Below the pieces are notes generated by a model. It did not search any database, was not told where the DNA came from, and saw nothing but the letters and a program-made list of their open reading frames with translations. From a phage, in the sequence record PX418922.1: a stretch of 64,000 bases of DNA; one strand, 5' to 3'. The position numbers and the translations under genes were made by a program. Position 1 is the stretch's first letter, and every line of letters starts with the position of its first letter. Positions 10,156-50,182 of the stretch are shown in pieces.

Positions 10156-10160
10156 CCAGT

Positions 10161-10230: not shown

Positions 10231-10236
10231 CCTAAT

Positions 10237-29623: not shown

Positions 29624-30096
29624 TGGCAGATTTAACTACGATCAAAGTTTCTGATCTTACACAAACAACCTCTGTATCTGATACAGATTTCTTTGTAACA
29701 GATCAGGCTGGAATAACAAAGAAGACTTCTTTGAAAGTGCTGTTGAGTGGTGCAGGGGTAACTAGAAACCGTTTAAATGCACGTGGAACAGTAACTAGCA
29801 CCTTGGCATTAGATATTAGTTCAGCAGAATATTTTTCGGCAACTTTATCTTCTGCAACATGCACAATTAGTTTTACTAATATTCCAGTAGCAACGAATGC
29901 AGTTTTAAACTTTACTTTAGCTTTGCGTCAAGGAAGTGGCGCAAATAAAGTCGTATGGCCTTCTTCTGTAAAATGGAGTTTTGGTCGTTCCCCAGTTTTG
30001 AGTTATCGTCAAGGTGCAACAGACACTTTTGAGTTTATCAGTTATGATAATGGTGCAACTTGGACAGGTAGCTTAGTTTTAGCAGGAGTTATTTAA
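29623..30096 (+). CDS. baseplate/tail protein
   Basis: ATGA overlap coupling to neighbours. Confidence 0.4.
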   Translation: MADLTTIKVSDLTQTTSVSDTDFFVTDQAGITKKTSLKVLLSGAGVTRNRLNARGTVTSTLALDISSAEYFSATLSSATCTISFTNIPVATNAVLNFTLALRQGSGANKVVWPSSVKWSFGRSPVLSYRQGATDTFEFISYDNGATWTGSLVLAGVI

Positions 30097-32972
30097 TGTC
30101 AAGAGTTAAGCACAATATTGACAACACGTTTCAGTTGATTGAAGGGTTGGTTCAGTTTTTGGAAAGAAATACTGGGCTTACCATAGATCCTACGGTTCAG
30201 CATTACATTATCAACCCACAAAACGTATTGGCGAACAACAGACACTTTATTAACTGGACAGCGCAGGAAGGGCAACCAAACGGTGACGCTACTACCGAAG
30301 GTCAATCTGTGCTTATCACTGGTTTTGCTTATGCATATTTGGCTACAGGGGATAAAAAATATCTTGAATCTGCCGAGAAGTATTGGCAAGCCTATATAGA
30401 TCACTTCTTCGGGGGCCAACCTATTCCTGATCCTCCGGCTAAGTATCGTCCCAACTGGATCATCAATGGTAAAGAACCACGTTTAGCACATTACCCTCTC
30501 ACAGATGATGGGTATCCTACGCACGGTGGGTTCAAAGGTAGCATGATGACTTGGATTAACGGAAGGACTGTTATTCCTAAAGGTGCACCGCATTGGGGGG
30601 AATACTTAGATAAAGCTTGGTTTGCTTTCAATGGCAATCTTGGTTGGAACTCCGTTAACGCAACAGTTTATGCAACTAATCCAGATGGTTCAACCAACTG
30701 GAAAGAATATGGAGATCAGTGGGACGTTGAATGGATTATAGATCGTCTAGGACGTAAAGTTGATTGGGATGGTAACATTTTATCTACAGGTCACAGCTTC
30801 GCAGAATATGGAACAGTGCAACTTAAAAATGCTTCTGTGAACGGTGATTATAAATTCAACTACGCTACATGCAACCCTGTAGAACACGGTGGATATCTGC
30901 TTAAGCGTAATGAGATGTGGCATAACCGTCCTGTAAACGTTCCGGTAGAGTTAGGTTATCAAGATAATGCTTCCGATGCTGAAACGTGGTGGTGTGATGC
31001 AAACTACTTGATGTATCAGATCACAGGAGAGAGAAAATACTGGCTTTGCTGGCAATCTTCTTTATTGTTGTGTCAAGACTACTCAAACATCGATATGTTT
31101 GATAAATTCTTCCGTAGATCTACGACAGCAATAATTCCTTTTACAGATGGTATCTCGTATGATTACTCATACCCATCTACAGCAATACCTAAATATTCTC
31201 GTGACGAATTAGGATACACAGTAATTCGCCAAGATGTTTCAGCACAAACAACTCTAGAACAACAGGCAGTTTGGTTCAGAGCAGATCAGAATTCAAAACT
31301 GCGTATTGAGTTTCAAGGTGTAGATGATGCAGGGGAAGGTGTTCTTTTCCGTCCAGAGCTAGAATTAAGCAAAACTAAGAGTGAAACAGACACAGTGACA
31401 TATCGTTGTGGCTTACCTCTTGGTGCAGCTAATATGACTAAGATGGATATACCTTTATCTAGTTTTATGCGCACCGAACCTCCTGGAGGTGGTGTATATA
31501 TTATTGCTGAACCCAGAATTATTGTTGACTGGGGAAGCAATACTGTGATACAATATAAATATGCAACTGGTATTGCTGGGACAAATAGTGATCAGATAGT
31601 TTCTGCTAATATGGATTCAGATGGTGGTTTTACTGTTGGGTTTTGGTTAACACCAACTAAAACAGCCAATTTAAAATCTATTACATATCGTTCATACGCA
31701 GATGATTTTAACATCACTATTACGGATTCCGCAGGTTGGAGATGGTGGGCCATGTTAGAAAAAACAAATTCTGCATGGGTTACTAAAGCTTTAAGTCCTG
31801 CTGATTTCAAATTAAGCACTTGGCAACCCAATCATAACGACACAGAGGCAAAACCTTCGTCAATAAACCTGACTGCTGTTGATCAGATCAATATTGCATT
31901 GGATTCTGAACCTGCAAATGGCTTGACAGGGGCAATCGACTTTTATTGCGTTAACGATATCCCATCTTTGTATTCTTCAGCCGCTGGCGATGATTACACA
32001 ATGTATTTCAGGGTTACAGTTTCATCTGAAAATCCTTATACAGCAAAACTTGGAGATTGTACAATACTGGACTACAAACTTGACAGTTTGAATTATACTC
32101 CAGGAATCATTCCATTTTCCAATATTAGTGATCCTAACACAGCATTATATGACGGTTGGCGTGGTATTCCTTATCCAGGTTATCAATACCCATCCTTATA
32201 TTGTTTTAAAGGGAGAGATATTGACTGGGTTCGTATGAACAACAGTATAGACTTTTTATATGATTCACAAATGTGGTTTTATAATAAGTTTGCCCCTGTA
32301 ATGCCTGGGCCAATGGCACAAGCTTATGTTTGGGATCGTTGGGATGCTCATAAATATGGAAACAAAAATGAGTTCACAATGTATCATTGGAACGATAAAG
32401 CTTGGGATGGTTATGAAGCACGAGCATTCTTCTGTGCGTGTCATACGGTATACGAACTAAAGCGACGAGGAGCCGAAGTTCCTGAAAAACTTTTAACAGT
32501 TTGTAAAAACTGGATCAACTACCTGAAGTGGTTCCAAGATAACAACGAAGGAAGAACACCAACAATATTTTATCCCAACGGAGAAGTGGCTGCGCCTGTA
32601 GATGACTTTACAAGTCACATGTCTGCGCTCTTTATGGCGGGATGTGCTATAATGGGGATGGCTGGATATGATTCAGAAATTCCTAACATTAAAATAGTAG
32701 CAGACCGCTGTTTTGAACTTATTCAAGAAAACTATATTGTTCTTGGTCCTAATCACGTTATGAATGGTTGTTGGAGTGCTGCTCCTAGACCAGACAGTGA
32801 TAACGGAGTCTTCTTTGGCTTCCACGCTGGAGAGTTGTTACGTGGTTTTGGGTTGTATGCTTTATACAAAAAACTTAATCCCCAAAATGCATTACCTGTT
32901 TTGGATTCGAGCAATATTCCTGCACTTACTGTTTTGACAATGGCAAACATTAGTGTGGACGTTACCGAGTAA
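30096..32972 (+). CDS. large tail-associated protein (possible receptor-binding or glycan-degrading protein)
   Basis: 958 aa, Trp/Tyr/Asn-rich; position in tail module. Confidence 0.45.
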   Translation: MSRVKHNIDNTFQLIEGLVQFLERNTGLTIDPTVQHYIINPQNVLANNRHFINWTAQEGQPNGDATTEGQSVLITGFAYAYLATGDKKYLESAEKYWQAYIDHFFGGQPIPDPPAKYRPNWIINGKEPRLAHYPLTDDGYPTHGGFKGSMMTWINGRTVIPKGAPHWGEYLDKAWFAFNGNLGWNSVNATVYATNPDGSTNWKEYGDQWDVEWIIDRLGRKVDWDGNILSTGHSFAEYGTVQLKNASVNGDYKFNYATCNPVEHGGYLLKRNEMWHNRPVNVPVELGYQDNASDAETWWCDANYLMYQITGERKYWLCWQSSLLLCQDYSNIDMFDKFFRRSTTAIIPFTDGISYDYSYPSTAIPKYSRDELGYTVIRQDVSAQTTLEQQAVWFRADQNSKLRIEFQGVDDAGEGVLFRPELELSKTKSETDTVTYRCGLPLGAANMTKMDIPLSSFMRTEPPGGGVYIIAEPRIIVDWGSNTVIQYKYATGIAGTNSDQIVSANMDSDGGFTVGFWLTPTKTANLKSITYRSYADDFNITITDSAGWRWWAMLEKTNSAWVTKALSPADFKLSTWQPNHNDTEAKPSSINLTAVDQINIALDSEPANGLTGAIDFYCVNDIPSLYSSAAGDDYTMYFRVTVSSENPYTAKLGDCTILDYKLDSLNYTPGIIPFSNISDPNTALYDGWRGIPYPGYQYPSLYCFKGRDIDWVRMNNSIDFLYDSQMWFYNKFAPVMPGPMAQAYVWDRWDAHKYGNKNEFTMYHWNDKAWDGYEARAFFCACHTVYELKRRGAEVPEKLLTVCKNWINYLKWFQDNNEGRTPTIFYPNGEVAAPVDDFTSHMSALFMAGCAIMGMAGYDSEIPNIKIVADRCFELIQENYIVLGPNHVMNGCWSAAPRPDSDNGVFFGFHAGELLRGFGLYALYKKLNPQNALPVLDSSNIPALTVLTMANISVDVTE

Positions 32973-32980
32973 GGGGTAAA

Positions 32981-35134
32981 ATGAAACAAGCTATATTTAC
33001 TGTCACGCGAGACAAGAGAGTAAATGCGAGTTCATTTAACTACACGACTGTTGACGGAACAGCAGTCGCTGGTAGAGATTATATTGCAAAATCGGGAACA
33101 CTTGTGTTCCCTGATGATGCTGATTCTGCTACTATTGTGGTTGAAGTATTTGAACGACCAAAGAACTCAATAGATCTTAACTTCTCCCTCCAAGTTTCAG
33201 GGATTAGTCAAAATAACATGATGGTTGAAACAACCATCAATTGTATTATAACTACTATCCAAGAAAATACTACTCCAATAACTTGGACTACAAAAGACGC
33301 TAAAATGTTCTCTCCTATGTATTGGACAATAGATTCTCAAGCAACGGAAAGTTGTTCTATTGTATCTCATGGAGACTCTTTTACTGCAAGATTTGTAAAC
33401 AGAACAACAGCAGGTTTGGCAGGGGTTATCTGGAGCACAGTTGACAAATATGACCATAAAGGTGTTGGGTATTTACCCCACACAGATTTAAGTTCAGAGA
33501 AACTTTGGTTTAAAATGGAAATTAGTCAAAACATGCCAGGTTTTAAAGAAGAACCTTTGGTGCCGACTTTGACTGTAACTCTCCTGGATAAAAGTGTTCA
33601 TTATGTCAGTTTAGGATTCTACGCTTCAGATATTTCAGAAGATGGTAAAACAGCTACAATCAAGTTAGATTTTGGTAATATCTTTTCTGGCCCTAACAAT
33701 GATATTCCTTTAGATATGAGTGCTGTAGATAATATTTTCTTCTCTTTGATTACAGCAAGGTATGAAGAAATAGAAGAGATTGTACCTATTGCCAGTCAAG
33801 AGGCTTGGTTTACTTTCACTCTTCTTGAACCTACTTCTGGTTACAGTATGATGAAAGTCAGCAACCTTGTCCAGCCTGAACATGATATTCGCATGTGCAC
33901 ATCTTATGATGATATGTATAACCTGACTCCAGAGAGAGTTATTTATAATACATATGCGCTAGGTTATCGTGGAATGATTAACCATTACAACGGAATGTCT
34001 CACTATTATGAGTTCTCATGGAACGGAACATCTTGGGCTTTAAATAGATCTGTCTTCCTGAATCCAGCTACAGAAGCTTGGCTAAATAGTTTCCATTCTA
34101 TAGCGAACGAGAAGGGTTACACAATAATGAACTCTTTAAGTTTTGAGTTGATGAGCACAGTTTGTCCTGTTGAATGGGTCCAGCATGATTGGAACGATGC
34201 TCTTGCAGCAACAGGGTATAAGCCTCCTAGTTACGTGTTGTCTCCAACTATTGACGAAGGCATGGAATATTTGCAAAATGTTATTAACAAAATAGCATCT
34301 ATTTCTCAAGCTAACAATATTCCAATCGTCATTCAAATTGGTGAACCTTGGTGGTGGTATAATACAGCAAGTAAAATGCCTTGTATATATGATTACACTA
34401 CCAAACTGGCATTCAATACAGAAACAGGCTTATTTGCACAAGATGCGGGAACAATAGATAATTATAAAACAGGAACGCCATTTGACGAATACTATGCATT
34501 TTTGTCTCGTAAACTAGGGTTAAGAGTTACAAAGTTTGCAACAGATACTAGAGCAACTTATCCAGGAGCTAAAGTAACATTGCTTCCATTCTTACCATCA
34601 ATTATTGGCAACGGGTTGATGGAGAAAGTTAACTTTCCGTCTGATTACTACATTCCTGAAGCTTTTGATTTTTACTGTTCGGAGTGTTACGACTGGCTTC
34701 TGGAAGGTAAAATGATGAAAGCATTTGATGCAATTACCATACCACATGAAAAATTAGGTTTTGAATATTCTGATATTCACTATCTTGCAGGTTTTGTTCC
34801 AGATGCTACTCTTGCACCTTTGTATGGCTTTGATCCTGAATCAAACTACCGCACGTATCTTTGGAAAATGATTATAGGTAACATAGTGTTGAACGCCAAT
34901 AAGTTTGACGGACTTACACAATATATATGGGCCTATCCTCAAATAATGCATGATTCTATCACGGTAGTTAATTCTCAATCCCAAGTTTTCTATATGGGTA
35001 ACGTGCCTTTGAACGTTTATTTACAGGATATCACTCTTAAACAGGTAAATGTTGAGATTGCCACCATAAGTGGAATTACATTAGCCACTAAATCTGGAGA
35101 AGATTTAGTAACAACACAAAAATTTTATATATAG
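32981..35134 (+). CDS. large tail-associated protein
   Basis: 717 aa; position. Confidence 0.45.
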   Translation: MKQAIFTVTRDKRVNASSFNYTTVDGTAVAGRDYIAKSGTLVFPDDADSATIVVEVFERPKNSIDLNFSLQVSGISQNNMMVETTINCIITTIQENTTPITWTTKDAKMFSPMYWTIDSQATESCSIVSHGDSFTARFVNRTTAGLAGVIWSTVDKYDHKGVGYLPHTDLSSEKLWFKMEISQNMPGFKEEPLVPTLTVTLLDKSVHYVSLGFYASDISEDGKTATIKLDFGNIFSGPNNDIPLDMSAVDNIFFSLITARYEEIEEIVPIASQEAWFTFTLLEPTSGYSMMKVSNLVQPEHDIRMCTSYDDMYNLTPERVIYNTYALGYRGMINHYNGMSHYYEFSWNGTSWALNRSVFLNPATEAWLNSFHSIANEKGYTIMNSLSFELMSTVCPVEWVQHDWNDALAATGYKPPSYVLSPTIDEGMEYLQNVINKIASISQANNIPIVIQIGEPWWWYNTASKMPCIYDYTTKLAFNTETGLFAQDAGTIDNYKTGTPFDEYYAFLSRKLGLRVTKFATDTRATYPGAKVTLLPFLPSIIGNGLMEKVNFPSDYYIPEAFDFYCSECYDWLLEGKMMKAFDAITIPHEKLGFEYSDIHYLAGFVPDATLAPLYGFDPESNYRTYLWKMIIGNIVLNANKFDGLTQYIWAYPQIMHDSITVVNSQSQVFYMGNVPLNVYLQDITLKQVNVEIATISGITLATKSGEDLVTTQKFYI

Positions 35135-35142
35135 GAGTAAAA

Positions 35143-37644
35143 ATGTCAACTACAATTACTAATTTACCCGAAACATCAAAAGTTAATGGTTCAGATTACC
35201 TGGTTTTAGATCAACCTGATAAAACTGTTAAAAGCACAGTTTCCAACTTTCTTACTGACACTGGGGTGGTTTTAGCCACCCAGTTGAAAGATACAGGTGG
35301 AGCAGATTTAATACAATCCTCAAATGGTAATACTGTTCAGGAAGAGTTGAATAACAATCTTCTTAATGATCGTGAACAGTGGCGTCGTAGTCTTGCTGAA
35401 GCGGGGTTAACACTTGTTGATGGTAGCTTTGAGGAGGGTGCTACATTAAATAATAATACTGATGCTGTTTGGTATATTGCAGGTGGACAGTGCTATACAT
35501 GGGGTGGTGCTTTCCCTAAAGAAGTTCCAGCTGGGTCAACCCCAGAAACATCTGGTGGCGTTGGTTCTGGGGCGTGGGTGAGCGTTGGTGATGCTAATTT
35601 AAGACAGGAATTAGCATCTTCATCTGGGTTTAAATTAATTGGTTCAGTATCTAATGTTACTCAATTAAGAACCATTACCGGTTCTGCTGGAGATAAAATA
35701 TTCCTCAAAGAATATAATACTGGTACCGGGAAAGGTGGGGGAATATTGACTGGTGTTAGCAGTCCGACACTGGTCGATGATGGCGTGAGCTTTTTCAGGG
35801 TTAACTCATCTTTTGGTTGGGCGCGAGATATATCTAAAGGTGTTAGCTTTTTTGATGGTGGTGTTATTGGTGATGCTGTTATTTCTGGTCCAAGTGTAAC
35901 TGGAACAGATGATACTGCCGCGGTTCTTCGCGTTTTTTCTGCCAGATTACCGATTAGGCAGAATACGCCGTTAAAAATGCGTCTAACGTCTTCTGTAACT
36001 TTAGGTAACGGTATTGTTGACTTGGTTGGTGCGGGGTCCACACATGTAGTATTTGTATTTGATCATTTGTCTGCCGGTTTAACTTTTGGCTCTGAGACTA
36101 ATTCGGAAACAAAATACCAGGGAACAGTGAAAGGCGTTTCTTGCGTTCGCCCTAACTACCTTGCATATGCTGGCTCAGCAGGTCCAAAATCTCTCTCATT
36201 TGGTAACTTCTCCCCTATTATTTTAGAAGACGTTAGAGAAGAAAACGCCATAGGATTTGGTATTTTCTTTGTATTCTGCCGGTCGGTCGTGGTTAGGAAA
36301 TGTTACGCCGGTAATCACGTCGGAACTTACTCTACCCCTAAATCTGGAACGGATGGCATCCATTTTTATAAATGTAACGACGTATGGGCCTACGATAATA
36401 TTTTAGAGGAAATCGGTGACGATGCGATATCATCAGGGTCATTTGATCCCCTGTTCCCTTGCTCAAATATAAACTTCATCAGGAATAAGATTTCAAGAGT
36501 GCACGGAAGTATGAAACTTTATAGTTTTGTGGACGGTGCGGAGATAGCCTATAACCGATTCCGCGTAGGTCATGAAGGAGGAGTTTATCTTACAAATGAT
36601 GCTAACTCTCTCGATAACTCTTATGTGAAGAATATAAAAATTCATCACAATGAGTTTTTTGATATTATTGGGAGTGAACCCAGTAATAACACATCTGGTG
36701 GCGTGCGTCTGAGATTCTGGCCTGATAATTCAGTACCAAATTCACGGGCAATTATAGACCAAATCTATATAACAGATAACCTAATTAGTGGCTGTGGCGC
36801 TGGCATTGCGGCAATAACACAGGATGCATACAAAAGATTTTCTAATATGTTCATTCGTAATAACTCGTTTCGTGCGGCACCACTCGATCTAACGGGTAGC
36901 AGGCCTTATATCCGCATACATCAATTTGATTATGAACTTGAGATTAGCGGAAATACAATGGTTAACTCGCATTCAGGGGGTATTGTTATAGATCAGGTCA
37001 ACGGCTCGGTTACCGCCACTTTTACGGCTCCAAAAGCTAAAATCAGCGGTAACACTATCGATGGGTACAGCCTGGCGTCAACGTTGGGCCAACTGGCAAA
37101 CGGTATTCTGGTTAGACCGTCTGATTACAATATCCTCTTAGAGATGGTAGGTAATCAGGTAAGGGGCCAGGCTATTAGTGATACCCTACCAGCAACACAA
37201 GGCATTTTGGTTAACAACGTTAGCCCACTGTCTTTTATTGAAGCAAACCAATCCGATAACAACATTGCTATCGGTGCAGGTTCTGCTGCCTATAAAGGTA
37301 TAGGTAAGACTAAGTTGGGAGCACCGAATGCTGGTACTCACTACGCTGGCAGTACCATTACTGATTATGTTGGTGGGAATCGTTACACTATCCTAACCAA
37401 CGGAACCTTTGGTACATTAAACGGTGTAACAGGTACTACTGTAGCCGGTAGTAAAACAGTTACTCTTAATAGCATAGCTGATGTGTATAGAGGTTGTGTT
37501 ATAGCTATAGCTGGTGTCTCTGGTAACAAACGTGTCTTGGATATACAAGGCACTACTATTAAGGTCGATGTAGCTTGTGACACTTCTGTATCAAACGGTG
37601 CAGTTAGCTACGTTGCCCCTACCTTTAGGACAGAAGCTATGTAA
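35143..37644 (+). CDS. tail spike/fibre protein with beta-helix-like repeats
   Basis: N-terminal anchor motif YTWGGAFPKEVPAGSTPETSGGVGSGAWVSVG shared with two other fibre genes; Gly/Asn/Ser/Ile-rich repetitive body. Confidence 0.55.
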   Translation: MSTTITNLPETSKVNGSDYLVLDQPDKTVKSTVSNFLTDTGVVLATQLKDTGGADLIQSSNGNTVQEELNNNLLNDREQWRRSLAEAGLTLVDGSFEEGATLNNNTDAVWYIAGGQCYTWGGAFPKEVPAGSTPETSGGVGSGAWVSVGDANLRQELASSSGFKLIGSVSNVTQLRTITGSAGDKIFLKEYNTGTGKGGGILTGVSSPTLVDDGVSFFRVNSSFGWARDISKGVSFFDGGVIGDAVISGPSVTGTDDTAAVLRVFSARLPIRQNTPLKMRLTSSVTLGNGIVDLVGAGSTHVVFVFDHLSAGLTFGSETNSETKYQGTVKGVSCVRPNYLAYAGSAGPKSLSFGNFSPIILEDVREENAIGFGIFFVFCRSVVVRKCYAGNHVGTYSTPKSGTDGIHFYKCNDVWAYDNILEEIGDDAISSGSFDPLFPCSNINFIRNKISRVHGSMKLYSFVDGAEIAYNRFRVGHEGGVYLTNDANSLDNSYVKNIKIHHNEFFDIIGSEPSNNTSGGVRLRFWPDNSVPNSRAIIDQIYITDNLISGCGAGIAAITQDAYKRFSNMFIRNNSFRAAPLDLTGSRPYIRIHQFDYELEISGNTMVNSHSGGIVIDQVNGSVTATFTAPKAKISGNTIDGYSLASTLGQLANGILVRPSDYNILLEMVGNQVRGQAISDTLPATQGILVNNVSPLSFIEANQSDNNIAIGAGSAAYKGIGKTKLGAPNAGTHYAGSTITDYVGGNRYTILTNGTFGTLNGVTGTTVAGSKTVTLNSIADVYRGCVIAIAGVSGNKRVLDIQGTTIKVDVACDTSVSNGAVSYVAPTFRTEAM

Positions 37645-37649
37645 ACCAT

Positions 37650-37668
37650 AGGCCACGTAAGGTGGCCT
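37650..37668 (+). terminator. stem-loop after tail spike gene
   Basis: AGGCCAC-GTAAG-GTGGCCT hairpin; weak U-tract. Confidence 0.4.
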
Positions 37669-37696
37669 ATTAAAACTACAACATGAGGATTAACCC

Positions 37697-38002
37697 ATGA
37701 ATAAGATGTTTACCCAGCCAACAGGCTCGGTAGCAAAACAGACTAACAAACAATCCATAGCCCGTCACTTTGGAGTTAAGCAATCCGAGGTTGTTTATTT
37801 CTCAGTTGGTGCTCCGCTTACTGGTTACAAAGCCATTTATGACAAAGAATCGCAGCGTGCTTACTCCTTACCTGCTGATATTGCCCCAGGTACTACTGCC
37901 ATTAGTCTTAGTGCTGCTGTACTTGTGCATTCAGCGGGTTCTGTAGACCTTGGGGAATTAGCTGTATATCGTGATTTAAAAAGTAATGAGAACGCACTAT
38001 GA
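37697..38002 (+). CDS. small protein paralogous to an internal segment of the 42326-45379 tail spike
   Basis: VKQSEVVYFSVGAPLTGYKAIYD...SVDLGELAV aligns with LLDDEVAYATAGQSLTGIKALYD...SVDLSALAV in the large spike. Confidence 0.45.
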   Translation: MNKMFTQPTGSVAKQTNKQSIARHFGVKQSEVVYFSVGAPLTGYKAIYDKESQRAYSLPADIAPGTTAISLSAAVLVHSAGSVDLGELAVYRDLKSNENAL

Positions 38003-38241
38003 GAAAATTTTTAATAGGTATGTTCTGTACATATCCTGATAATAAAGTCAGTTCTACTAAAGTCTGGAACGCTGTAGGCATGTCGGTTATGACAGGCATG
38101 TTTATCTTTTTAGGAATAGAAAAAGAAATTCCTGAATGGATGGGTTGGGCTTTTGTTTTCATGATAACCCCTTCTCGCCTCATGAAAAATCTTATTGATT
38201 TACGCTGGGGCAGATCACAATCTACCAAAGAGGATGACTAA
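37999..38241 (+). CDS. small membrane protein (two predicted TM helices)
   Basis: Hydrophobic stretches VMTGMFIFLGI and WMGWAFVFMIT. Confidence 0.4.
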   Translation: MRKFLIGMFCTYPDNKVSSTKVWNAVGMSVMTGMFIFLGIEKEIPEWMGWAFVFMITPSRLMKNLIDLRWGRSQSTKEDD

Positions 38242-39728: not shown

Positions 39729-39730
39729 AA

Positions 39731-40360: not shown

Positions 40361-40369
40361 GGAGTTTAA

Positions 40370-41431: not shown

Positions 41432-41977
41432 ATGATATTTACAAATTTTAAAAGATATATTCCCGAAGATCCCGAACTAAAAGAATTGGTAGAAGTAGAG
41501 AACATTCTTTTTCTTCGTTGCGATCAAGGTTACGATTGGTATGATTTACGTAGCACAGAATTCAATAACGATAAAATGAAAGTCGTTTTTGACGATCAAA
41601 ATCGTATTGTGTTTTGGAACACTGATCCTACATTACTTTGCCCTGAAGATCTTTCTATAGCACAAGTGGACTTTAATATAGACACTTTTGAGGATATTAG
41701 AAACAAGGTTCTGGATTTAGAAACTTTGACTCTTAAGGATAAAGAGTATTCCCGTGAAGAGTTGATGACACAAGCTAGTGCAAAAATTCGCTCTTTACAA
41801 GAAACAGCGGTAGCACTTATAACACCTTTACAGTATGCTAAAGATTTAGAAATGGCTACTGAAGATGAATTAGCTTATCTTAAAAATCTTCAAGTTTATG
41901 TGGTTAAACTAAACCGTGTTCCGCTTCAAAAAGACTATCCTTACACTATAGATTGGCCTACATTACCAACGGAATAA
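41432..41977 (+). CDS. putative tail fibre assembly protein
   Basis: Position after fibre gene; ATGA-type coupling. Confidence 0.4.
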   Translation: MIFTNFKRYIPEDPELKELVEVENILFLRCDQGYDWYDLRSTEFNNDKMKVVFDDQNRIVFWNTDPTLLCPEDLSIAQVDFNIDTFEDIRNKVLDLETLTLKDKEYSREELMTQASAKIRSLQETAVALITPLQYAKDLEMATEDELAYLKNLQVYVVKLNRVPLQKDYPYTIDWPTLPTE

Positions 41978-41986
41978 GGGATCATT

Positions 41987-42322: not shown

Positions 42323-42325
42323 TTA

Positions 42326-45300
42326 ATGGCAACATTCCCAACGTATCCAGCAACGTCTCTTGAACAGGGCGTAGATCTGGTTATTTTCTCGTCCAATCAA
42401 CTTCATGATGTTATTAATGGAAGTGCGACAGAAAGTATTGAGACAGAATCAGGGTTGATACCAACCCTGAGAAAAGCCCTTGTTGATAACTTTTTCTTTA
42501 AAAGCCCATTGGATTGGGCGCAAGGCACAAATGAAACGGTTTTTAACCAACTACGTTATTTTCAGAATGGGGTATTGAGCGGTTATTATTATGCTCCTAA
42601 TGCTACATTGGTAAACCCAATCCCTATGCAAGGTACTCCAGTAGGAGATAACAACTGGGTATTGTGGGGATTGAAGACAGAACAATTGGCAACAGAAGTC
42701 ACACCTTGGGTATATTCTGGTGCAACTGGTTATGAAACAGTAATCAGTCCTCCTTACATCTTTGATAGTGCTATTGTTACGATCAATGGTGTTATTCAGG
42801 TTCTGGGGGAAGCTTTCCGTATAGAAGATAGTAAGATCATCTTATCTGAACCTTTGGGACACGATCCTGCAACAGGACTGCCAAACAAGCTTTTCGCTTA
42901 TATTGGTAAAATCGTAGCTTCAGCAGATACAGATCCTAATCTAGAGAACCGTCTTGTTAGTTTAGAAACAAAAACGGAAGAACTAACAGAAAGCATAGAT
43001 AAAGTCCCTCTGCAAACTATTGCTCGTAAATATGGTTTGTTAGATGATGAGGTGGCTTACGCAACAGCAGGTCAATCGTTAACAGGGATTAAAGCTCTGT
43101 ATGATCCGGTAGCACAGTCTTCCTACACATTACCTCCTAACATCACAGGAACTTTAACATCTTTGTCTGTTTCTGGAGTAATGACTTATTCTGGAGGGTC
43201 TGTAGATCTTTCTGCACTAGCTGTTGAACGTGGACAGTTTGTCCATTTGCCTACAAGCTTTGGTAATAATGTAACTCTGACAGCTAAAAATCAGACGATT
43301 GGACGTGGTGCTGGTCGTTATCGTTGGGCTGGAAGTTTACCAAAAAGTATTTTGGCCTCTGACACATTAGAGACAAGCGGTGGATTAGGTCCAAACGCAT
43401 GGGTTCTAACTAATACGGAAGGACTGTTAACCCCTCGTGGTGGAACATACAACGATTTATTCGATGTTGTCTACTTGTCAGAATTTGCTAACAATACAAC
43501 TACCTATACCACACCAGAAGCAGCTTTCCAGGCGGCACTGTTAGCAGCAAAAGCTTCGAAAAGTAAGATTCTCGATGCTTACGGTTGCGATATGACTTTC
43601 ACGACAAGCTCTTTTGATATTCAAGGTATCACTTTGCGTGGTGGTGTGTTCCGTGGTCAACGCGACTATCGTGTGCAGAATGCTACAGTAGAAGGCACAA
43701 CTTTCCGTAACTCTCGTGTTATGTATTGGGGTGGTGCTGTGCGCATGTTCGATTGTTTGTGGGACGGTGCTCCTCGCGCAGGTCAAGTTGGTAGCTTGGT
43801 ATTCCAAGGCAACCCAATATCAGGTACTTTTGAAATTGATAATTGTACTTTTAAAAACGGGTTATATGGCATCCTTCAACAAGGGACAGGAGAACCAGTA
43901 ACACGCGGTGTCTTCCGTAACCTTACCTTCATGGACATGCAAGGTGATGCGATAGAACTGAACGTCATCAATAAACATTATGATGATGGTTGTGTGATTG
44001 AGAATATTTACCTGTCTAATATCGATGGGACTAACGCTCCTATTCCTCTGTCCAACTGGGGTATCGGTATCGGTGTAGCTGGTAAAGGACCATATGGTTA
44101 CGGAATCCCTGATGATCAATATTGCAAGAATATTACAATTCGTAACGTTTTTGCAAAACGTTGCCGTCAGATTGTCCACGTAGAAGTTGGTCGTAATATT
44201 TCTATCGAAAACATTCATGGCGATCCAGATCAAACCGTATCTGTTGGGACAGGTTTGGCAACTGGCGCAGTTGTAATGTATGGAAGTAAAGATTTTACGA
44301 TTGACGGTGTTTATGGAGAGCCTAAAACAGACGGTAGCACACTTGCAAGTAATATCCGTATGATTTATTTGGAGTGGGGAACTAACGCAGTTCTGGACGA
44401 AGAGGGTAATCCGGTAGTTCCGGCACAGGGTAGACCTTCAAACCCATGCTTTAACTATTCTGTTCGTAATATTCACACCAAAACTGGGCGTGTTTTTGCA
44501 GGAGTTTCCGCTGGGCCAGGTTATGAAAACAGAGTTAGCTTTGAAAATATTCGTTGCGCTGCATTGCAGTTGTTCGGTATAGCTTCTTGGCTTTCAATGT
44601 CTAACATCACCTGTAATATCTTCGATTGTGTTGGTCAACCTGAATCTGGTCCAGGGACATTTTATGATGGATTCTTCCGTAGAGAAAAATCTGTTCTTGA
44701 AATGGTTAACGTGAACTGTTACCCAGATGGCAAGACGATGGTTACTGGTCGTCCACAGTGGAGCCGTTGCCGTTACTCGGATATTCATCGTGTCAACTGT
44801 AATGTTGAAGCTAATATGTATACCAATATCGCAGGTGGTATTGGAGCTATTGTAGGGACAACGGGCAAAGTTTATTACTTAGAGCCTAATCCTAGTCGAA
44901 ACATTGATGGAATGCATTTCCCAACAGGGAAAGAGTTTGACAAAGGTGATATGATAGTCAAGGCGGATAATACGTTCTTCCTTGTAACAACAAGTGGGGC
45001 ATATATTCCAGATATCCCAGCTTTCGGTATTCGAGCTACACAGGCAGGAGATACCTTCCTGACACAGAACTTGACTCCTAACGGGACAGCAACAAATGCT
45101 TCTTGGTTGTATCATTACCCTCTGTCAGCAGGGACACGTATCCGTATTCCTGGTGCTGGCGTAGGTGGAGCAGATTTGGACACAGTTATTACTCGTGCAC
45201 CTTATCAAGATAATGATACGTGGACTAACCCAGTTAAAATAGACATTGCAGATCCAATTGTAACGCCTACAAGTGCTGGAGTTAGAATTAAAACCATACC

Positions 45301-45379
45301 TAATGATTCCAGTAATGTTTCTGTAGGTAATACTGCGGTTATTCGCCCAACGCCAGTAGTAGATGTGCCAACAACCTAA
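42326..45379 (+). CDS. tail spike protein (beta-helix-like, 1017 aa)
   Basis: ETSGGLGPNAWVL anchor-like motif; long Gly/Asn/Thr/Val-rich repeats. Confidence 0.55.
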   Translation: MATFPTYPATSLEQGVDLVIFSSNQLHDVINGSATESIETESGLIPTLRKALVDNFFFKSPLDWAQGTNETVFNQLRYFQNGVLSGYYYAPNATLVNPIPMQGTPVGDNNWVLWGLKTEQLATEVTPWVYSGATGYETVISPPYIFDSAIVTINGVIQVLGEAFRIEDSKIILSEPLGHDPATGLPNKLFAYIGKIVASADTDPNLENRLVSLETKTEELTESIDKVPLQTIARKYGLLDDEVAYATAGQSLTGIKALYDPVAQSSYTLPPNITGTLTSLSVSGVMTYSGGSVDLSALAVERGQFVHLPTSFGNNVTLTAKNQTIGRGAGRYRWAGSLPKSILASDTLETSGGLGPNAWVLTNTEGLLTPRGGTYNDLFDVVYLSEFANNTTTYTTPEAAFQAALLAAKASKSKILDAYGCDMTFTTSSFDIQGITLRGGVFRGQRDYRVQNATVEGTTFRNSRVMYWGGAVRMFDCLWDGAPRAGQVGSLVFQGNPISGTFEIDNCTFKNGLYGILQQGTGEPVTRGVFRNLTFMDMQGDAIELNVINKHYDDGCVIENIYLSNIDGTNAPIPLSNWGIGIGVAGKGPYGYGIPDDQYCKNITIRNVFAKRCRQIVHVEVGRNISIENIHGDPDQTVSVGTGLATGAVVMYGSKDFTIDGVYGEPKTDGSTLASNIRMIYLEWGTNAVLDEEGNPVVPAQGRPSNPCFNYSVRNIHTKTGRVFAGVSAGPGYENRVSFENIRCAALQLFGIASWLSMSNITCNIFDCVGQPESGPGTFYDGFFRREKSVLEMVNVNCYPDGKTMVTGRPQWSRCRYSDIHRVNCNVEANMYTNIAGGIGAIVGTTGKVYYLEPNPSRNIDGMHFPTGKEFDKGDMIVKADNTFFLVTTSGAYIPDIPAFGIRATQAGDTFLTQNLTPNGTATNASWLYHYPLSAGTRIRIPGAGVGGADLDTVITRAPYQDNDTWTNPVKIDIADPIVTPTSAGVRIKTIPNDSSNVSVGNTAVIRPTPVVDVPTT

Positions 45380-45385
45380 TGGAAT

Positions 45386-45408
45386 AGAGGGGGATTCCCC
45401 CTCTTCTT
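45386..45408 (+). terminator. stem-loop terminator candidate
   Basis: AGAGGGGG-ATT-CCCCCTCT hairpin followed by TCTTCC. Confidence 0.45.
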
Positions 45409-45440
45409 CCAATAGAATGGTCTAATGATAGGAGAGATAA

Positions 45441-47465
45441 ATGAATTTAACAAGACCTAATAGTGCGATAGCCGATCTGGTAGAAGCTACTTATCGAAAA
45501 CGTCGCAGCTTTGAGGCAGGTTTTACATTACGTAATTCCCGTGAAGTTTTGCTGTTAGCAGCAGAAGGGAATTATTACCAATGGAAAGGAACTTTTCCTA
45601 AAGTAGTTCCAGCAAACTCTACGCCAGCCACCACAGGTGGTATTTCTTCCCTTGCATGGCAAAGTGTTGGGACCGCTGATGATATAGCAATTATCAATGC
45701 CAAGTTTACGGCAATGCAGCAACAGATTGATGATCTGTCGGAAACAATACCTGAAGCTGGTAAATCGGCTTATCAGATCGCACTTGATAATGGTTTTGTT
45801 GGAACAGAAGCACAATGGCTTGCTTCTTTGAAAGGGGATACTGGTGCTCAACTTAATATTAAAGGATCATTAGCAAGCACTAGTGAACTACCATCCACAG
45901 GTAACGTTGCAGGGGATGGTTATATCGTAGGTGATGTAATCTACGCTTGGGATGGTTCTGTTTGGAAACTTATTTCTTCTCTTGGACCAGAAGGTAAATC
46001 AGCTTACGAGATATGGTTGGCAGATGGTAATACAGGATCTGTTTATGATTTTCTTACCTCTATAAAAGGTGATAAAGGCGATGTTGGTCCTACAGGGCCA
46101 CAGGGAGCACCTGGTGTTAACGCCAACGGTTTTGATTATCGTGGGGATTTGCCTTCTACAAGTAACTTACCACAACCTAACTCTGAAAACGTAAGCCAAG
46201 CTTATTCTATCAATGGTAATCTTTATGTCTCTAATGGGACAGCTTGGGTCAACATGGGTAATATTGTTGGTCCTCAAGGTCCACAAGGTGAGGCAGGTAA
46301 AGACGGTCTAGATGGAACAGATGGAGATGAAGGGAAATCTGCATATCAAAGTTGGCTGGATGCTGGTAACGAAGGGACAGAAGTAGATTTTATTGCCTCA
46401 CTTAAAGGTCCAAAAGGAGACAAGGGTGATCAAGGAGAGCGAGGTCCACAAGGTGAACTAGGTCCGCAAGGACCAGTGGGTGCAACAGGATCAGGTTTAG
46501 AGATTATCGGGGTTCTGAACAGCGAAGCTGAACTTCCTCCTACTGGAGAAGTAGGTGATGCATATAAAATTAATAATGATTTGTATGTTTGGGTTCAAGA
46601 TGCTACGGAATGGATGAATGTTGGCAGTCTTGGAGGAACATCAATTACAGCTAAAGGGCATGTTCCGAACAGTGAAGCTCTCCCTGTTTACAATAACTAT
46701 GGCGATGCCTACTTAACTGAAGACACCAGTAATCTTTACATCTATACCTACGATCAAGACACCAATTCCGCATCTTTTGTTGACATGGGAAGTATTAAAG
46801 GCGACAAAGGTGAAAAAGGGGATAAAGGAGATAAGGGTGATCCTGGAACAAACGGAACCAACGGTACTAATGGGACCAACGGTAAGGACGGCGCACAGTG
46901 GTTTGTAGCAACAACTAATCCAGTCGCAGGTGATGGTGTTATCAATGATTACGCTTTCAATACTACCACTGGAGCAGTGTTTAAGAAAACAGATTCTTCT
47001 ACATGGACACTTATAGGAACTCTTCCTAGTATACCAGAAGCACCTCAAGACGGCTTGACGTATGGTCGTTCTGATGGGAACTGGATCGAAATATCAGGAT
47101 CAGATCCTACAGAAGCTATAACACCAACTAAAGTTACAGCAGGTTTCATGGAACTTGAAACAACTACTGCCAACTCTGGAGCATCTTGGACTCCTTCTGG
47201 AACTTCCAATATGTATGTTGTTACAGTAACTGACGCTCTGACAGTTGGAGCATGGCCTGGTGTCACTGGCTCTACAAAACCTAAAGCGTTTTCAGCAATG
47301 ATTTATTTGATTCAAGATACAACGGGACACACGGTTACACTAGATGCGTCTTATGGAGCACTAAATGATACAGAAATAGCAACTACTGCTAACGCAGTAA
47401 CAATTTTGCAATTAACGTATCCTGGTGTGGGTAATATCGTGGACATGGTTGTTGTAACACGATAA
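45441..47465 (+). CDS. tail fibre protein with collagen-like Gly-X-Y repeats
   Basis: GPQGPQGEAGKDG, KGPKGDKGDQGERGPQGELGPQGPVG and KGDKGEKGDKGDKGDPGTNGTNGTNGTNGKDG blocks; N-terminal anchor motif YQWKGTFPKVVPANSTPATTGG; three GKSAY...W(L)..GN internal repeats. Confidence 0.65.
   Translation: MNLTRPNSAIADLVEATYRKRRSFEAGFTLRNSREVLLLAAEGNYYQWKGTFPKVVPANSTPATTGGISSLAWQSVGTADDIAIINAKFTAMQQQIDDLSETIPEAGKSAYQIALDNGFVGTEAQWLASLKGDTGAQLNIKGSLASTSELPSTGNVAGDGYIVGDVIYAWDGSVWKLISSLGPEGKSAYEIWLADGNTGSVYDFLTSIKGDKGDVGPTGPQGAPGVNANGFDYRGDLPSTSNLPQPNSENVSQAYSINGNLYVSNGTAWVNMGNIVGPQGPQGEAGKDGLDGTDGDEGKSAYQSWLDAGNEGTEVDFIASLKGPKGDKGDQGERGPQGELGPQGPVGATGSGLEIIGVLNSEAELPPTGEVGDAYKINNDLYVWVQDATEWMNVGSLGGTSITAKGHVPNSEALPVYNNYGDAYLTEDTSNLYIYTYDQDTNSASFVDMGSIKGDKGEKGDKGDKGDPGTNGTNGTNGTNGKDGAQWFVATTNPVAGDGVINDYAFNTTTGAVFKKTDSSTWTLIGTLPSIPEAPQDGLTYGRSDGNWIEISGSDPTEAITPTKVTAGFMELETTTANSGASWTPSGTSNMYVVTVTDALTVGAWPGVTGSTKPKAFSAMIYLIQDTTGHTVTLDASYGALNDTEIATTANAVTILQLTYPGVGNIVDMVVVTR
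46800..46892 (+). repeat. Gly-X-Y codon tandem repeat inside tail fibre gene
   Basis: Direct reading: ggc gac aaa ggt gaa aaa ggg gat aaa gga gat aag ggt gat cct gga aca aac gga acc aac ggt act aat ggg acc aac ggt aag gac ggc. Confidence 0.7.
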
Positions 47466-47468
47466 CAG

Positions 47469-47493
47469 AAGCCCCGAAAGGGGCTTTCTTTTT
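47469..47493 (+). terminator. rho-independent terminator
   Basis: AAGCCCC-GAAA-GGGGCTT hairpin plus TTCTTTTT. Confidence 0.65.
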
Positions 47494-47506
47494 ATGGAGG
47501 GTTTAA

Positions 47507-50182
47507 ATGTTTCCAATTCCAATATTTACTATTATGACCAGCACTGGTGTCGTTCCTCTGCCAGCAGGTATTGTTAAAAAAGTAATCACTTTAGATTACC
47601 CAGATAATGCTGGGAATTCTAATAGCAGTTTAGCAATTTTGCTTAATGATGGTAGATTGTTTACTCAAGGCGCAAACCTTTTTGGTGAGATTGCAGATGG
47701 AACTCGTAGTGCACGATTCAATAATTTCCACTTGGCTTCTACTGTAGTAGCGGATGTGTTTACCGCAGATCGTTGTTTTGTTATTAAAACTAACAGTGGA
47801 GGATGGCAATATTCAGGATTGACAGCAGGATTGGTAGGATCTATAGCAGCAGGTGGTACGGACGCATGTGTAACTACTTGGACCAGCTTTCCATCTGTAA
47901 TAACAGGGACTATCTCTTTAGCTAATCTTAAAGAGGTTAAGGGAGGATATAACAACACTCTCTGGTTAATGAATAGTGGTGTTCTTTATGGATCAGGTCA
48001 AAACACAGTAGGCAGTTTAGGTGCAAGTACTACTAACGAAGTTTCTACTCCTCGTCAGATAACAAGTGCAGCAGTTGCTTTTGATGCAGGTTACAACCAA
48101 TGCTCTTATGTCAACAATGTGGGAACCTTGCGTGTTTGTGGAGCTAGTAAAGGTTTAGCAGGTAATAATAACACAACAACAGCTTTTGTCAATGCTAAGA
48201 TATCCGCTACTGAAACAGTGTATGTCAAAGATTACATCAATACAGTTTCCCAGACAATAGTTGTAGGAGATACCTCCGGTGGCACGGGTACAGTAAACTA
48301 CTTATATGTTAGGTCTAATACAGAAACAACCTACACTAAACTGGATACCTTTGCAGCAGGTTTCTCAACATGGAAGTTTCCACCAAGCCGCCACTCTTTT
48401 TTCGTTGGGATCAATAATTCCTTGTGGGCTATTGGTAAGAACTACACTGCAAACTTAGGTTTGGGGTATGATTCTGCGAGCGGAGATCCACTCCAAGTGG
48501 GAAAACCAGTTAAACCTGAAGGAGTGGGTTCTTGGGATATAAACAAGCTCACAAGCGTTCATACGCTGAATATGGATGTTACTAACCAATTAGGTTATCA
48601 AGGAACCTTTTTCGTTTATAATGGAGATATGTATTATTCCGGTATTTGGAAAGATGGGAAAGCCTCGTATCTGTTCAATAGCGGTCTAAACTATAATAAA
48701 TTCACACCAATAGCAAGCTCCGTGATTACGGGTGATATTCTGGCAACTGGCTTAACTACAGATTCTTTAGGAATTTGTATTGTAGGTGGAACTAAACAGT
48801 TGACACATTCTGTTAGCCCAGAAGGAGGTAAACTTTTCAATATTAAATACACTTCTTCTGCCCCTGCAAACATGACAATATCATCTACTGGTTTAATGAC
48901 TTTCCATGCAGAAGGTGGTTTTGATGCAGGTATGACAGCCTTAAACGCTGAAGGAACAACTTTATCAGATACCTCTGGAGGATATGCTTCAACATTGAGT
49001 GTTTACACCCCTAGCTTATCTGCGATGGATGTAGGAACAACACAAACAATGGTAGCAGAAATAACGCCAACAGGAGCAGCAAGCTTACCTGGCATGGTTG
49101 TTGAGTATTTCTCTAATGACCCTACGGTAGCAACAGTTGACCCCGTTACAGGCGTTATTACAGCGGTTGCTGATGGAGGTTGTCGTATCGGTTGTAGAGC
49201 AACTTATCAAGGTGTGGTAACTGCCGAAGATAGTTCTTATCTCACAGTGAATGCTGTGGTGATTGTGATGGATTATGATTTGACGCAAGAAACTATTCCG
49301 GCGGATGTAAAGGTCAACAGGAGTAACCGTTATGCCAGGGCTTCTGGAGATATCCTTGTACCTACAGAGAGTTCTGCTCCCGTAGCACCTTTAGAATATG
49401 TTGGTACAACTCCACAAGGTAGACGTGTTGTAGCAGCCAACCGTACACATATCTTTATCAACAATAACTTGACAACAGCTTCCCCGTGGTTGAAGACGAA
49501 CTTGACAGTCACAGCATCAACAATCAACTCTCCGGTTGGAACTACGGCTAACACTTACAAGTTAACACCTTCTACAACTTCAGGACAACATATTTTATCA
49601 GCAGTGAATACAGCTTCTGATATTACAGCAGGTAAGCACTGGGCGGCATCCGTATTCTTGAAGCCAGATGGGATCACTAAAGTGAAACTCAAATTGACTT
49701 CAGGAGATGAGATTAACGAAGGGACTTATGATCTTGTAGCTGGAACATTTACAGGTGCAGATGCAAACATAATCGATATGGGGAATGGTTGGTATCGTGT
49801 AATTCTACACAAAGTGACAGTTGCCAAACAAGCATCTATAACCTATGAGATTATAGCTTTGAATGCAAGTGGATCAGACACTTTCGCAGGAGATGGTACG
49901 GCAGGTCTTATTGCTTGGGTTCCACAGCTTGAGATGGGGGATATGACAAATCCAGTTTGGGCGGGGACACCATTTGTTTGTTCTTATGCACGAGACACTA
50001 CCAGTGCTGTTACCTTCACTATTCCTAAGAATGGACATACTGGCGTGGACATTTACCACACTGATGGTACTGTGCAACGAGAGGTCTTCACTGGTACAGC
50101 TACAACTTGGATGTTGACGTTCACCGCCGCAAGTGCGGATTGGGGATCGAAGTTCATTACAGGTTTGAAATATTACGACTAA
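47507..50182 (+). CDS. large tail fibre protein (beta-rich, Ig-like/adhesin-like)
   Basis: 891 aa, Thr/Ser/Gly/Val-rich; last gene of rightward late operon. Confidence 0.5.
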   Translation: MFPIPIFTIMTSTGVVPLPAGIVKKVITLDYPDNAGNSNSSLAILLNDGRLFTQGANLFGEIADGTRSARFNNFHLASTVVADVFTADRCFVIKTNSGGWQYSGLTAGLVGSIAAGGTDACVTTWTSFPSVITGTISLANLKEVKGGYNNTLWLMNSGVLYGSGQNTVGSLGASTTNEVSTPRQITSAAVAFDAGYNQCSYVNNVGTLRVCGASKGLAGNNNTTTAFVNAKISATETVYVKDYINTVSQTIVVGDTSGGTGTVNYLYVRSNTETTYTKLDTFAAGFSTWKFPPSRHSFFVGINNSLWAIGKNYTANLGLGYDSASGDPLQVGKPVKPEGVGSWDINKLTSVHTLNMDVTNQLGYQGTFFVYNGDMYYSGIWKDGKASYLFNSGLNYNKFTPIASSVITGDILATGLTTDSLGICIVGGTKQLTHSVSPEGGKLFNIKYTSSAPANMTISSTGLMTFHAEGGFDAGMTALNAEGTTLSDTSGGYASTLSVYTPSLSAMDVGTTQTMVAEITPTGAASLPGMVVEYFSNDPTVATVDPVTGVITAVADGGCRIGCRATYQGVVTAEDSSYLTVNAVVIVMDYDLTQETIPADVKVNRSNRYARASGDILVPTESSAPVAPLEYVGTTPQGRRVVAANRTHIFINNNLTTASPWLKTNLTVTASTINSPVGTTANTYKLTPSTTSGQHILSAVNTASDITAGKHWAASVFLKPDGITKVKLKLTSGDEINEGTYDLVAGTFTGADANIIDMGNGWYRVILHKVTVAKQASITYEIIALNASGSDTFAGDGTAGLIAWVPQLEMGDMTNPVWAGTPFVCSYARDTTSAVTFTIPKNGHTGVDIYHTDGTVQREVFTGTATTWMLTFTAASADWGSKFITGLKYYD

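Follow-up and report, generated by a model that had tools for sequence, protein, structure and literature searches.

The fibre module of a Phapecoctavirus carries a chimeric tailspike and a TD1-only stub that is probably a scar of cassette exchange

Introduction

Phages of the phi92, phAPEC8 and rV5 type (Stephanstirmvirinae, Vequintavirinae) carry a multivalent adsorption apparatus that has been called a "nanosized Swiss army knife" because several lateral fibres are expressed together (PMC8594841, PMC12695924, PMC13450770). Cryo-electron microscopy (cryo-EM) of phi92 virions revealed only three sets of fibres, one of which (fibre II) branches off at the base of fibre I (PMC13450770); co-display of several fibre types on the virion is known from phi92 cryo-EM only. 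Here we analyze the corresponding module in phage record PX418922.1, a stretch of 64,000 nucleotides (nt) that we refer to as the window. We focus on a variable slot of this module, which holds a tailspike of 833 amino acids (aa), p833, and a 101-aa open reading frame (ORF) immediately downstream of it, the stub.

Homologous TD1, TD2 and gp10-like XD domains are found in the tailspikes of Kuttervirus CBA120 (TSP1-4) and Gamaleyavirus G7C (gp66/gp63.1), where XD3 is the binding site for a second spike through the N-terminal TD1 of the latter (PMC11414711, PMC13352976). According to the literature on model systems, the docking element is TD1 or a short N-terminal peptide rather than TD2 (PMC11414711, PMC13352976, PMC6517402). 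In the receptor-binding proteins (RBPs) of the podophages KP32, K11 and K1-5 (Latka et al.), a short conserved N-terminus is present on an exchangeable spike and a gp10-like domain on another, and enzymatic bodies are swapped in a modular fashion across genera among Klebsiella and E. coli podophages. Finally, when S117 was engineered, recombination at conserved N-terminal domains gave chimeric and truncated tsp genes (PMC11414711).

The 20-kb region studied here is 97-98.6% identical at the nucleotide level to many Phapecoctavirus genomes over 85-90% coverage. These genomes (Stephanstirmvirinae) include P3322, SKA64, Ro121c4YLVW and phAPEC8, the gene order is identical to that of the type genomes phAPEC8 and Ro121c4YLVW except for the variable slot, and the genes are counterparts of phi92 gp140-gp151 as judged by position and homology. 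On identity, synteny and phi92 orthologues, we assign the region to the Phapecoctavirus lateral-fibre and baseplate module. Given 98% identity to known Phapecoctavirus genomes, its large arsenal is the published multivalent adsorption apparatus. An earlier reading of the sequence alone, made without database searches (the sequence-only reading), had proposed a multi-receptor arsenal; this is supported, but as a published hallmark of the phage group it adds little. The added detail is that TD2 and the TD1 stub appear as the ends of a cassette that, according to the homologies described below, is exchanged with Kuttervirus, Gamaleyavirus and Klebsiella siphophage lineages.

The locus shares with phi92 its gene order and the same hypervariable slot (phi92 gp143). 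In contrast to phi92, the slot spike has a body of Klebsiella siphophage lineage, and the colanidase spike of Phapecoctavirus contains a TD1-TD2 stretch without a detected match in the phi92 type. Compared to CBA120 and G7C, the locus has a truncated stub instead of a full-length secondary spike, only one XD-like domain, and an unrelated chassis with unrelated anchors. It resembles the podophage RBPs in its modular design, but it belongs to a myovirus baseplate and the N-terminus of p833 has no sequence similarity to the KP32-type conserved peptide.

A three-part spike occupies the variable slot

The features of the slot and its right flank, all on the plus strand, are as follows.

35143..37644 (+): p833 (833 aa), tailspike of the hypervariable slot, at the position of phi92 gp143
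35143..35307 (+): codons 1-55 of p833, the sole part conserved in every slot allele
35419..35592 (+): TD2 of p833 (Pfam, E = 1e-19), with the class II breakpoints and the junction to the Klebsiella body at its 3' end
37645..37696 (+): 52-nt spacer with a hairpin (AGGCCAC-gtaa-GGTGGCCT) and a GAGGA Shine-Dalgarno sequence
37697..38002 (+): TD1-only stub (101 aa), a tailspike "head" domain ending at the TD1/TD2 border
37999..38241 (+): membrane protein (80 aa; phrog_1322), conserved right flank of the variable slot, with a ratio of nonsynonymous to synonymous polymorphism (pN/pS) of 0.12

Genome comparisons place the exchange hot spot in the slot between the N4-gp64/65-like gene and the gene for the 80-aa membrane protein. 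Megablast found no phage record that covers the entire segment 35143-38241, and an exact-sequence look-up found the p833 protein in neither the phage collection nor the assembly index. Each part of p833, on the other hand, has close relatives. Residues 1-150 are a Stephanstirmvirinae N-terminus; over residues 1-154, p833 and the Ro121 spike share 89% identity. The body (residues 151-650) is 94-100% identical in protein and 89% identical in nucleotide sequence to gp60 of the Klebsiella siphophage 6991, which together with its relatives ZCKP8, ZCKp20p and ZC2 forms a set of ~46-49 kb Klebsiella siphophages with the same spike body; no other Stephanstirmvirinae record was found with the spike body encoded at 35593-37092. 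For residues 651-833, the match is the C-terminal part of the gp66-like fibre in Gamaleyavirus Mimir124, at 88-96% identity. By these matches, p833 is a three-part chimera of a Stephanstirmvirinae N-terminus, a depolymerase-type body from the Klebsiella siphophages and a Gamaleyavirus gp66-like C-terminal domain, and it represents a new chimeric allele of a known hypervariable slot. The origin of its body suggests that the phage may target a Klebsiella-type capsule or a similar E. coli glycan.

The left breakpoints of the slot alleles fall into two classes. In phAPEC8, ALITA, KMB37, anhysbys, nieznany and SF1-1 (class I), they lie at nt 151-178 and the sequences diverge before TD2; phmmer matches to the p833 N-terminus likewise end at residues 55-65. 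In seven comparisons, including the Klebsiella phage (class II), they lie at nt 436-476 of the p833 gene, the 3' end of TD2; six relatives other than those of class I match the gene as far as nt 452-476. We infer that residues 1 to ~55 constitute a virion- or adapter-binding peptide.

At the other end of the spike, the match to Mimir124 (90% nucleotide identity) continues from the spike C-terminus through an identically sized 52-nt spacer and into the first 22 codons of the stub. In Mimir124 the position of the stub start is the start of a gp63.1-like second fibre. The junction between a first-fibre C-terminus, spacer and second-fibre N-terminus of an N4-like podophage thus appears to be preserved in a myophage, and the alignment indicates that the spacer was co-transferred with its flanking coding sequence from a Gamaleyavirus-type gp66/gp63.1 junction. 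Fibre domains are not discussed in the Mimir124 paper. Recent domain shuffling, as the sequence-only reading had supposed, is both real and recent.

The stub is a foreign TD1 domain with a mosaic sequence

Residues 1-93 of the stub match CBA120 TSP1 (4oj5, residues 1-95) over the whole domain with E = 6e-33. Matches were also obtained to G7C gp63.1 (4qnl, 1e-31), to TSP3 and to 5w6f (4e-28), and the stub falls into phrog_7992 (E = 1e-54). By homology the stub equals the N-terminal TD1 "head" domain of a tailspike of the CBA120 TSP1/TSP3 or G7C gp63.1 type, truncated at the TD1/TD2 border. A random ORF or annotation artefact was rejected in view of the family match at 1e-54.

The stub had been read from the sequence as a paralog of an internal segment of the spike at 42326 (p1017). 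A similarity to residues 230-302 of p1017 does exist (BLASTP, 47% identity over 74 aa, E = 2e-16), but Kuttervirus tailspike N-termini are much closer, with ~75% amino acid and up to 87% nucleotide identity. Intragenomic duplication of p1017 was therefore rejected as the origin of the stub. DNA homology to full-length spike genes extends from ~35 nt upstream of the stub ATG to codon ~94, the TD1/TD2 border. Peculiar to the stub are its last seven codons and the overlapping ATGA. The GAGGA Shine-Dalgarno sequence lies 7 nt upstream of the start, and in the ATGA the stub's stop codon is interleaved with the start codon of the membrane-protein gene that follows. From the homologies, we regard the stub as a xenolog brought in by recombination.

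Within the stub, codons 1-57 occur as two allele types, one of the Mimir124 type and one identical to Kuttervirus/G7C N-termini. Codons 58-101 (SLPADIAPGTTAISLS...LAVYRDLKSNENAL) are common to all alleles and we refer to them as the resident part. Right breakpoints were located 27 nt upstream of the stub ATG, at codon 16, at codon 47, at codon 61, or after the stub. A few codons past the split at codon 57, within the part common to all alleles, is the motif GTTA(I/V)SL; it is the conserved recombination site in the TD domains that has been proposed for Kuttervirus (PMC8432352). The stub shows the same kind of breakpoint as the truncated tsp genes of S117. Unlike these, it is a natural remnant, it is common to two genera and it has been re-used repeatedly as a crossover site.

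The BME3 stub has been reported to be 100% identical to that of ZCKP1 (PMC12210895). In the BME3 paper the stub and upstream spike were considered "two CDSs of one spike" (CDS, coding sequence). We rejected such a split gene since the stub is an N-terminal domain and the spike that precedes it is complete, with a C-terminal domain and a stop codon of its own.

The stub is decaying in relatives

We inspected 18 Stephanstirmvirinae loci. The stub is 101-102 aa long in 12 of them. SF1-1 has a frameshift in it, only 63 or 49 aa are left in ALITA, KMB37 and ECGD1, contig L023 has a 20-aa remnant ORF, and phAPEC8 lacks it. A full-length spike with TD2 and body was found at the stub position in none of the 18.

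Across ten genomes, the two halves of the stub gave different patterns of substitution. The 5' half had a synonymous polymorphism (pS) of 0.50 and a pN/pS of 0.20, which we attribute to sequence imported from donors with a functional TD1. The resident half had a pS of 0.05 and a pN/pS of 0.71, as compared to 0.12 and 0.14 for the flanking membrane-protein and wedge genes in the same genomes. Among the 44 resident codons of 12 genomes (the out-of-register sequence L023 is left out of this count), eight variant codons were nonsynonymous and one was synonymous, with P = 1.8e-4 under the omega of the flanks and P = 0.27 under neutrality. Constraint on the resident half is thus relaxed: in this small sample, the part of the stub that is not overwritten did not show the dN/dS (nonsynonymous to synonymous substitution ratio) well below 1 that marks purifying selection.

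At the same time, nucleotide diversity in 37870-38016 was only 0.00-0.056 compared to up to 0.18 in the flanks at 38017-38673 (Phapecoctavirus plus Justusliebigvirus). The resident half is less diverged between the genera than the essential flanks, and this points to recent horizontal spread with the cassette. Our literature search for Phapecoctavirus virion proteomics returned nothing relevant and hence no proteomic support for the stub. No promoter or terminator signals above shuffled expectation were detected around it.

The motif shared by three proteins is TD2

The sequence-only reading noted a motif common to p833, p1017 and p674 (a collagen-like fibre) and interpreted it as a common docking domain on a branched adapter. 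The motif is real: it is Pfam PF18668 (Tail_spike_N), found at residues 93-150 of p833 (E = 1e-19, 70.7 bits), residues 12-77 of p674 (1e-19, 70.5 bits) and residues 302-361 of p1017 (2e-9, 37.6 bits), all three above the curated gathering cut-off of 25 bits. Pairwise BLASTP comparisons were likewise significant (p674/p833, 4e-12; p1017/p833, 1e-5; p1017/p674, 0.007), and HMM scans found no further copy in the window. It is N-proximal, as had been described, in p833 and p674 but not in p1017, where it occupies residues ~305-369 of 1017.

The motif corresponds to TD2, the second tandem or head domain of the CBA120 tailspikes (PDB 4oj5, 5w6f and 5w6h). Using tblastn, we found TD2 in >1,370 phage records of many families behind unrelated anchors; examples are K1F gp17, the spikes of Jerseyvirus, the TSPs of Kuttervirus and depolymerases of Klebsiella podophages. 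TD2 is a neck domain directly before the receptor-binding body of many tailspikes. The docking role that had been ascribed to it is not supported. Alleles of the p833 slot diverge before TD2, and Justusliebigvirus spikes retain residues 1-199 of p1017 without a detectable TD1-TD2; on these comparisons TD2 is not the attachment element, and the conserved attachment parts of p833 and p1017 lie upstream of it.

p1017 has the layout of a branching primary spike

Three features describe the colanidase spike.

42326..45379 (+): p1017 (1017 aa), colanidase tailspike, orthologue of phi92 gp150
42692..42922 (+): gp10-like XD (branching) domain of p1017, residues 123-199
43010..43432 (+): internal TD1 and TD2 of p1017

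The protein consists of an anchor (residues 1-115), a gp10-like XD (123-199), a coiled coil, TD1 (229-302), TD2 (305-369) and a beta-helix (426-1000). Its C-terminal 575 residues match the crystal structure of the phi92 gp150 colanidase (6e0v) with E = 1e-79 (phrog_6117). The anchor is common to Vequintavirus, Seunavirus and Vibrio phages. As a separate observation, this N-terminal domain shares PHROG family 4549 with the C-terminal ~120 residues of p674.

The XD assignment is supported by matches to the XD of Kuttervirus TSP2 (hhalign probability 84%, E = 7e-6; phmmer, 5e-5), to the G7C gp66 family phrog_2710 (4e-14) and to adaptors and depolymerases in PDB (7y22_e, 1.5e-4; 9k4a, 1e-3; 6w4q, 0.012). 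Neither the N-terminus of p1017 nor its homologues gave a match in Pfam scans, in which the family PF26208, precomputed for the homologues, did not come up either, and a homologue search with residues 1-230 returned only 8 proteins. In an AlphaFold2 (AF2) model of residues 1-230 (9-sequence alignment) the predicted local distance difference test score (pLDDT) was <50 at 118-230, and the gp10-like fold is a prediction from sequence.

Residues 128-360 of p1017 are colinear with XD3-TD1-TD2 of Kuttervirus TSP4 (residues 195-405; BLASTP, E = 3e-31), and p1017 is also colinear with G7C-like gp66 (BLASTP, 2e-15). It therefore shares with TSP4 and gp66 the order anchor-XD-TD1-TD2-beta-helix, and by this colinearity has the architecture of a branching primary spike. 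The TD1-TD2 stretch had no match in Justusliebigvirus gp150-type spikes (tblastn, residues 1-199 only) or in the phi92 gp150 crystal construct. A single XD-like domain was detected. The stub supplies the sole N-terminal TD1 of the window, and no full-length secondary spike that begins with TD1 is encoded there. The branched adapter of the sequence-only reading thus has a counterpart in the layout of p1017, although the domain concerned is the gp10-like XD and not the shared motif.

Cassette exchange and alternative explanations

We consider it probable that this is a multi-fibre module in which the stub is a scar of cassette exchange, with TD2 and the TD1 stub serving as homology arms. In this scheme, several chemically different glycan-binding or glycan-degrading proteins would be mounted on the baseplate wedge. 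TD2, conserved at the DNA level across unrelated phages, would be the left homology arm for swapping spike bodies. The stub would be the TD1 head of what was the next tailspike gene in a donor of the Kuttervirus or Gamaleyavirus type that has its spikes in tandem; the stub would have arrived with a cassette, truncated at the TD1/TD2 border, and would since have served as a passive right homology arm. Each exchange would overwrite its 5' part while its 3' part would drift without constraint at the protein level, and the last exchanges would have yielded the three-part p833.

Several points weigh against this explanation. The role of the homology arms was inferred from the positions of breakpoints and not directly observed, and just nine variant codons entered the neutrality test. 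A constraint at the DNA or RNA level could likewise account for the low divergence of the resident half. With a good Shine-Dalgarno sequence, translational coupling to the next gene and an intact reading frame in 12 of 18 loci, the stub is probably translated and may have a function, and the XD3-like domain of p1017 is a possible partner for it by analogy to CBA120 and G7C. In p674, where TD2 is the sole recognizable N-terminal domain, a docking role for TD2 may be considered.

One alternative is that the stub protein is a functional component of the virion or of its assembly, a trimer that docks on the XD3-type domain of p1017 and caps or stabilizes an empty socket or regulates the choice of secondary spike. 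The shared XD-TD1-TD2 layout of p1017, TSP4 and gp66, the binding of XD3 to a second spike's TD1 in those systems, the presence of just one N-terminal TD1 in the window, the signs of translation noted above and the branching of phi92 fibre II from the base of fibre I (PMC13450770) are all consistent with such a role. However, phAPEC8 and others have no stub and yet have a virtually identical p1017 (E = 8e-155 for the first 230 residues), the stub is frameshifted or truncated in five relatives, its resident half has a near-neutral substitution pattern and no proteomic evidence for the protein was found. We think a functional stub protein unlikely. A more speculative version, to which we also give little credence, is that Phapecoctavirus keeps an unoccupied or stub-capped branching socket, with the stub as both an expressed "adapter plug" and a landing pad for new modules. 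If this were true, one recombination event that rebuilt a full TD1-TD2-body gene at the stub would give the virion a further spike at once.

The original interpretation, in which the motif is a common docking domain for three spikes on one branched adapter and the stub arose by intragenomic duplication of the 42326 spike, is very improbable. It can draw on the significant sharing of the motif by p833, p674 and p1017, on the Pfam name of PF18668, which mentions the N-terminal domain of TSP1/Gp66, on the position of the motif at the extreme N-terminus of p674 and on the gp10-like branching domain in the module. Nevertheless, the motif starts at very different depths (residue 12 in p674, 93 in p833 and 302 in p1017), slot alleles that lack it retain residues 1-55, Justusliebigvirus gp150-type spikes that retain residues 1-199 have no detectable match to it, and it is found behind unrelated anchors in many phage families. 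The literature on docking cited above points to other elements, and the stub is far closer to foreign tailspikes than to p1017. It could also be speculated that the low divergence of the stub 3' half reflects a DNA or RNA function, for instance in coupling the translation or controlling the expression of the membrane-protein and wedge genes that follow. The low nucleotide diversity of 37870-38016 relative to its flanks in both genera compared, the overlap of the stop codon with the next ATG and the low and similar pN and pS of the 3' half fit this idea, but phAPEC8 expresses the same downstream genes without a stub, SF1-1 and ZCKP1 have altered stub junctions, and no promoter- or terminator-like signal above chance was seen nearby; we regard it as very unlikely.

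The breakpoints map the natural exchange of spike bodies in Stephanstirmvirinae to positions after residue ~55 or ~150 of the slot spike on the left and, on the right, to the TD1 stub or the sequence immediately before it. The homologies further show that spike bodies pass between myophages, siphophages and N4-like podophages infecting E. coli and Klebsiella. The mapped junctions could serve as ready-made design points for host-range engineering of therapeutic phages of the phAPEC8/phi92 type. The gp66/TSP4-like layout of p1017, in turn, is a testable candidate for the branch point seen by cryo-EM in phi92, where fibre II leaves the base of fibre I.

The remaining proteins of the module are diverse

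The other genes of the module, again on the plus strand, are the following.

29623..30096 (+): small tail fibre protein (157 aa), positional counterpart of phi92 gp140 (phrog_9017, E = 2e-68; synteny with phAPEC8 G377_gp098)
30096..32972 (+): p958 (958 aa), TfpL, conserved tail protein of the phi92 gene 141 type
32981..35134 (+): p717 (717 aa), with Calx-beta, NCTSP_N and TIM barrel
38241..40360 (+): baseplate wedge proteins, orthologues of phi92 gp145/gp146 (chains of PDB 21vq, E = 5e-264 and 8e-118)
40370..41977 (+): short tail fibre (phi92 gp147, fibre III type, Mu gpS-like) and gpU-like assembly chaperone
45441..47465 (+): p674 (674 aa), collagen-like repeat fibre of the phi92 gp151 type
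47507..50182 (+): p891 (891 aa), TfpM1 tail protein, without a counterpart in Justusliebigvirus

The ORF list confirms six ORFs of 674-1017 aa at the coordinates given, which the sequence-only reading had counted as six long fibre or spike proteins. As a count of fibres, six probably does not stand. p958 is predicted to be a globular protein with an (alpha/alpha)6 glycoside-hydrolase-like barrel into which beta-sandwich domains resembling carbohydrate-binding modules (CBMs) are inserted, and with this fold it was rejected as a trimeric fibre or right-handed beta-helix tailspike. Its homologues are widespread. p717 is a TIM-barrel protein that matches PF03160, PF23844 and PF23845 (E down to 1e-78) and Gp64 in PDB 9lc0 (6e-30), in kinship with N4 gp64/gp65 ("non-contractile tail sheath"), and it is a candidate glycan-modifying component of a lateral fibre; a deacetylase fibre has been described (Maffei 2021). 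In the metagenomic protein P0114 (1557 aa), p958-like and p717-like parts are naturally fused (52% identity over 571 aa). The fusion suggests that p958 and p717 act as one unit, perhaps the "arm" of phi92 fibre I, and it is likewise a testable candidate for the fibre I/II branch point of phi92.

p674 (phrog_15437) matches PF18668 (1e-19) and Collagen (3e-12) in Pfam, with TD2 at its extreme N-terminus (residues 12-88). Its N-terminus is 80% identical to that of Wecvirus and 71% to that of Justusliebigvirus. Three repeats of ~45 aa (GKSAY..W...G..G....F..SLKG.KGD) were noted amid its collagen-like G-X-Y runs. p891 (phrog_11922) consists of an RCC1-like beta-propeller, Big_2 Ig-like domains (Pfam) and a C-terminal domain, and it is of the TfpM1 type (PMC12695924). 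About residues 615-831 of p891 resemble the head spike fibre Rcc01080 of the Rhodobacter gene transfer agent (PDB 6tb9, 1.6e-13). Only p833 and p1017 among the six proteins are beta-helix tailspikes. With three fibre sets in phi92 and proteins as heterogeneous as their predicted domains indicate, these are probably not six separate fibres.

The short fibre and its chaperone (phrog_4465) match the short tail fibre of PDB 9cuy and the tail fibre assembly protein U of 5yvq. The fibre corresponds to phi92 gp147, which is of the fibre III type (PMC13450770).

Other observations

The gene for the 80-aa membrane protein is annotated as 50 aa in ZCKP1 and as 87 aa in phAPEC8, and its starts differ as well. 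The junction of the stub and the membrane protein is thus inconsistently annotated among relatives.

In this region, the record of "Acinetobacter phage vB_AbaM_ABPW7" and several labelled "Campylobacter phage" share ~94-97% identity with E. coli Phapecoctavirus, and public host labels may therefore be unreliable.

Upstream of the structural module, ten tRNA genes are clustered at 8392-10315 on the plus strand (Met, Arg, Ser, Asn, Thr, Gly, Gln, Pro, Ile and Met).

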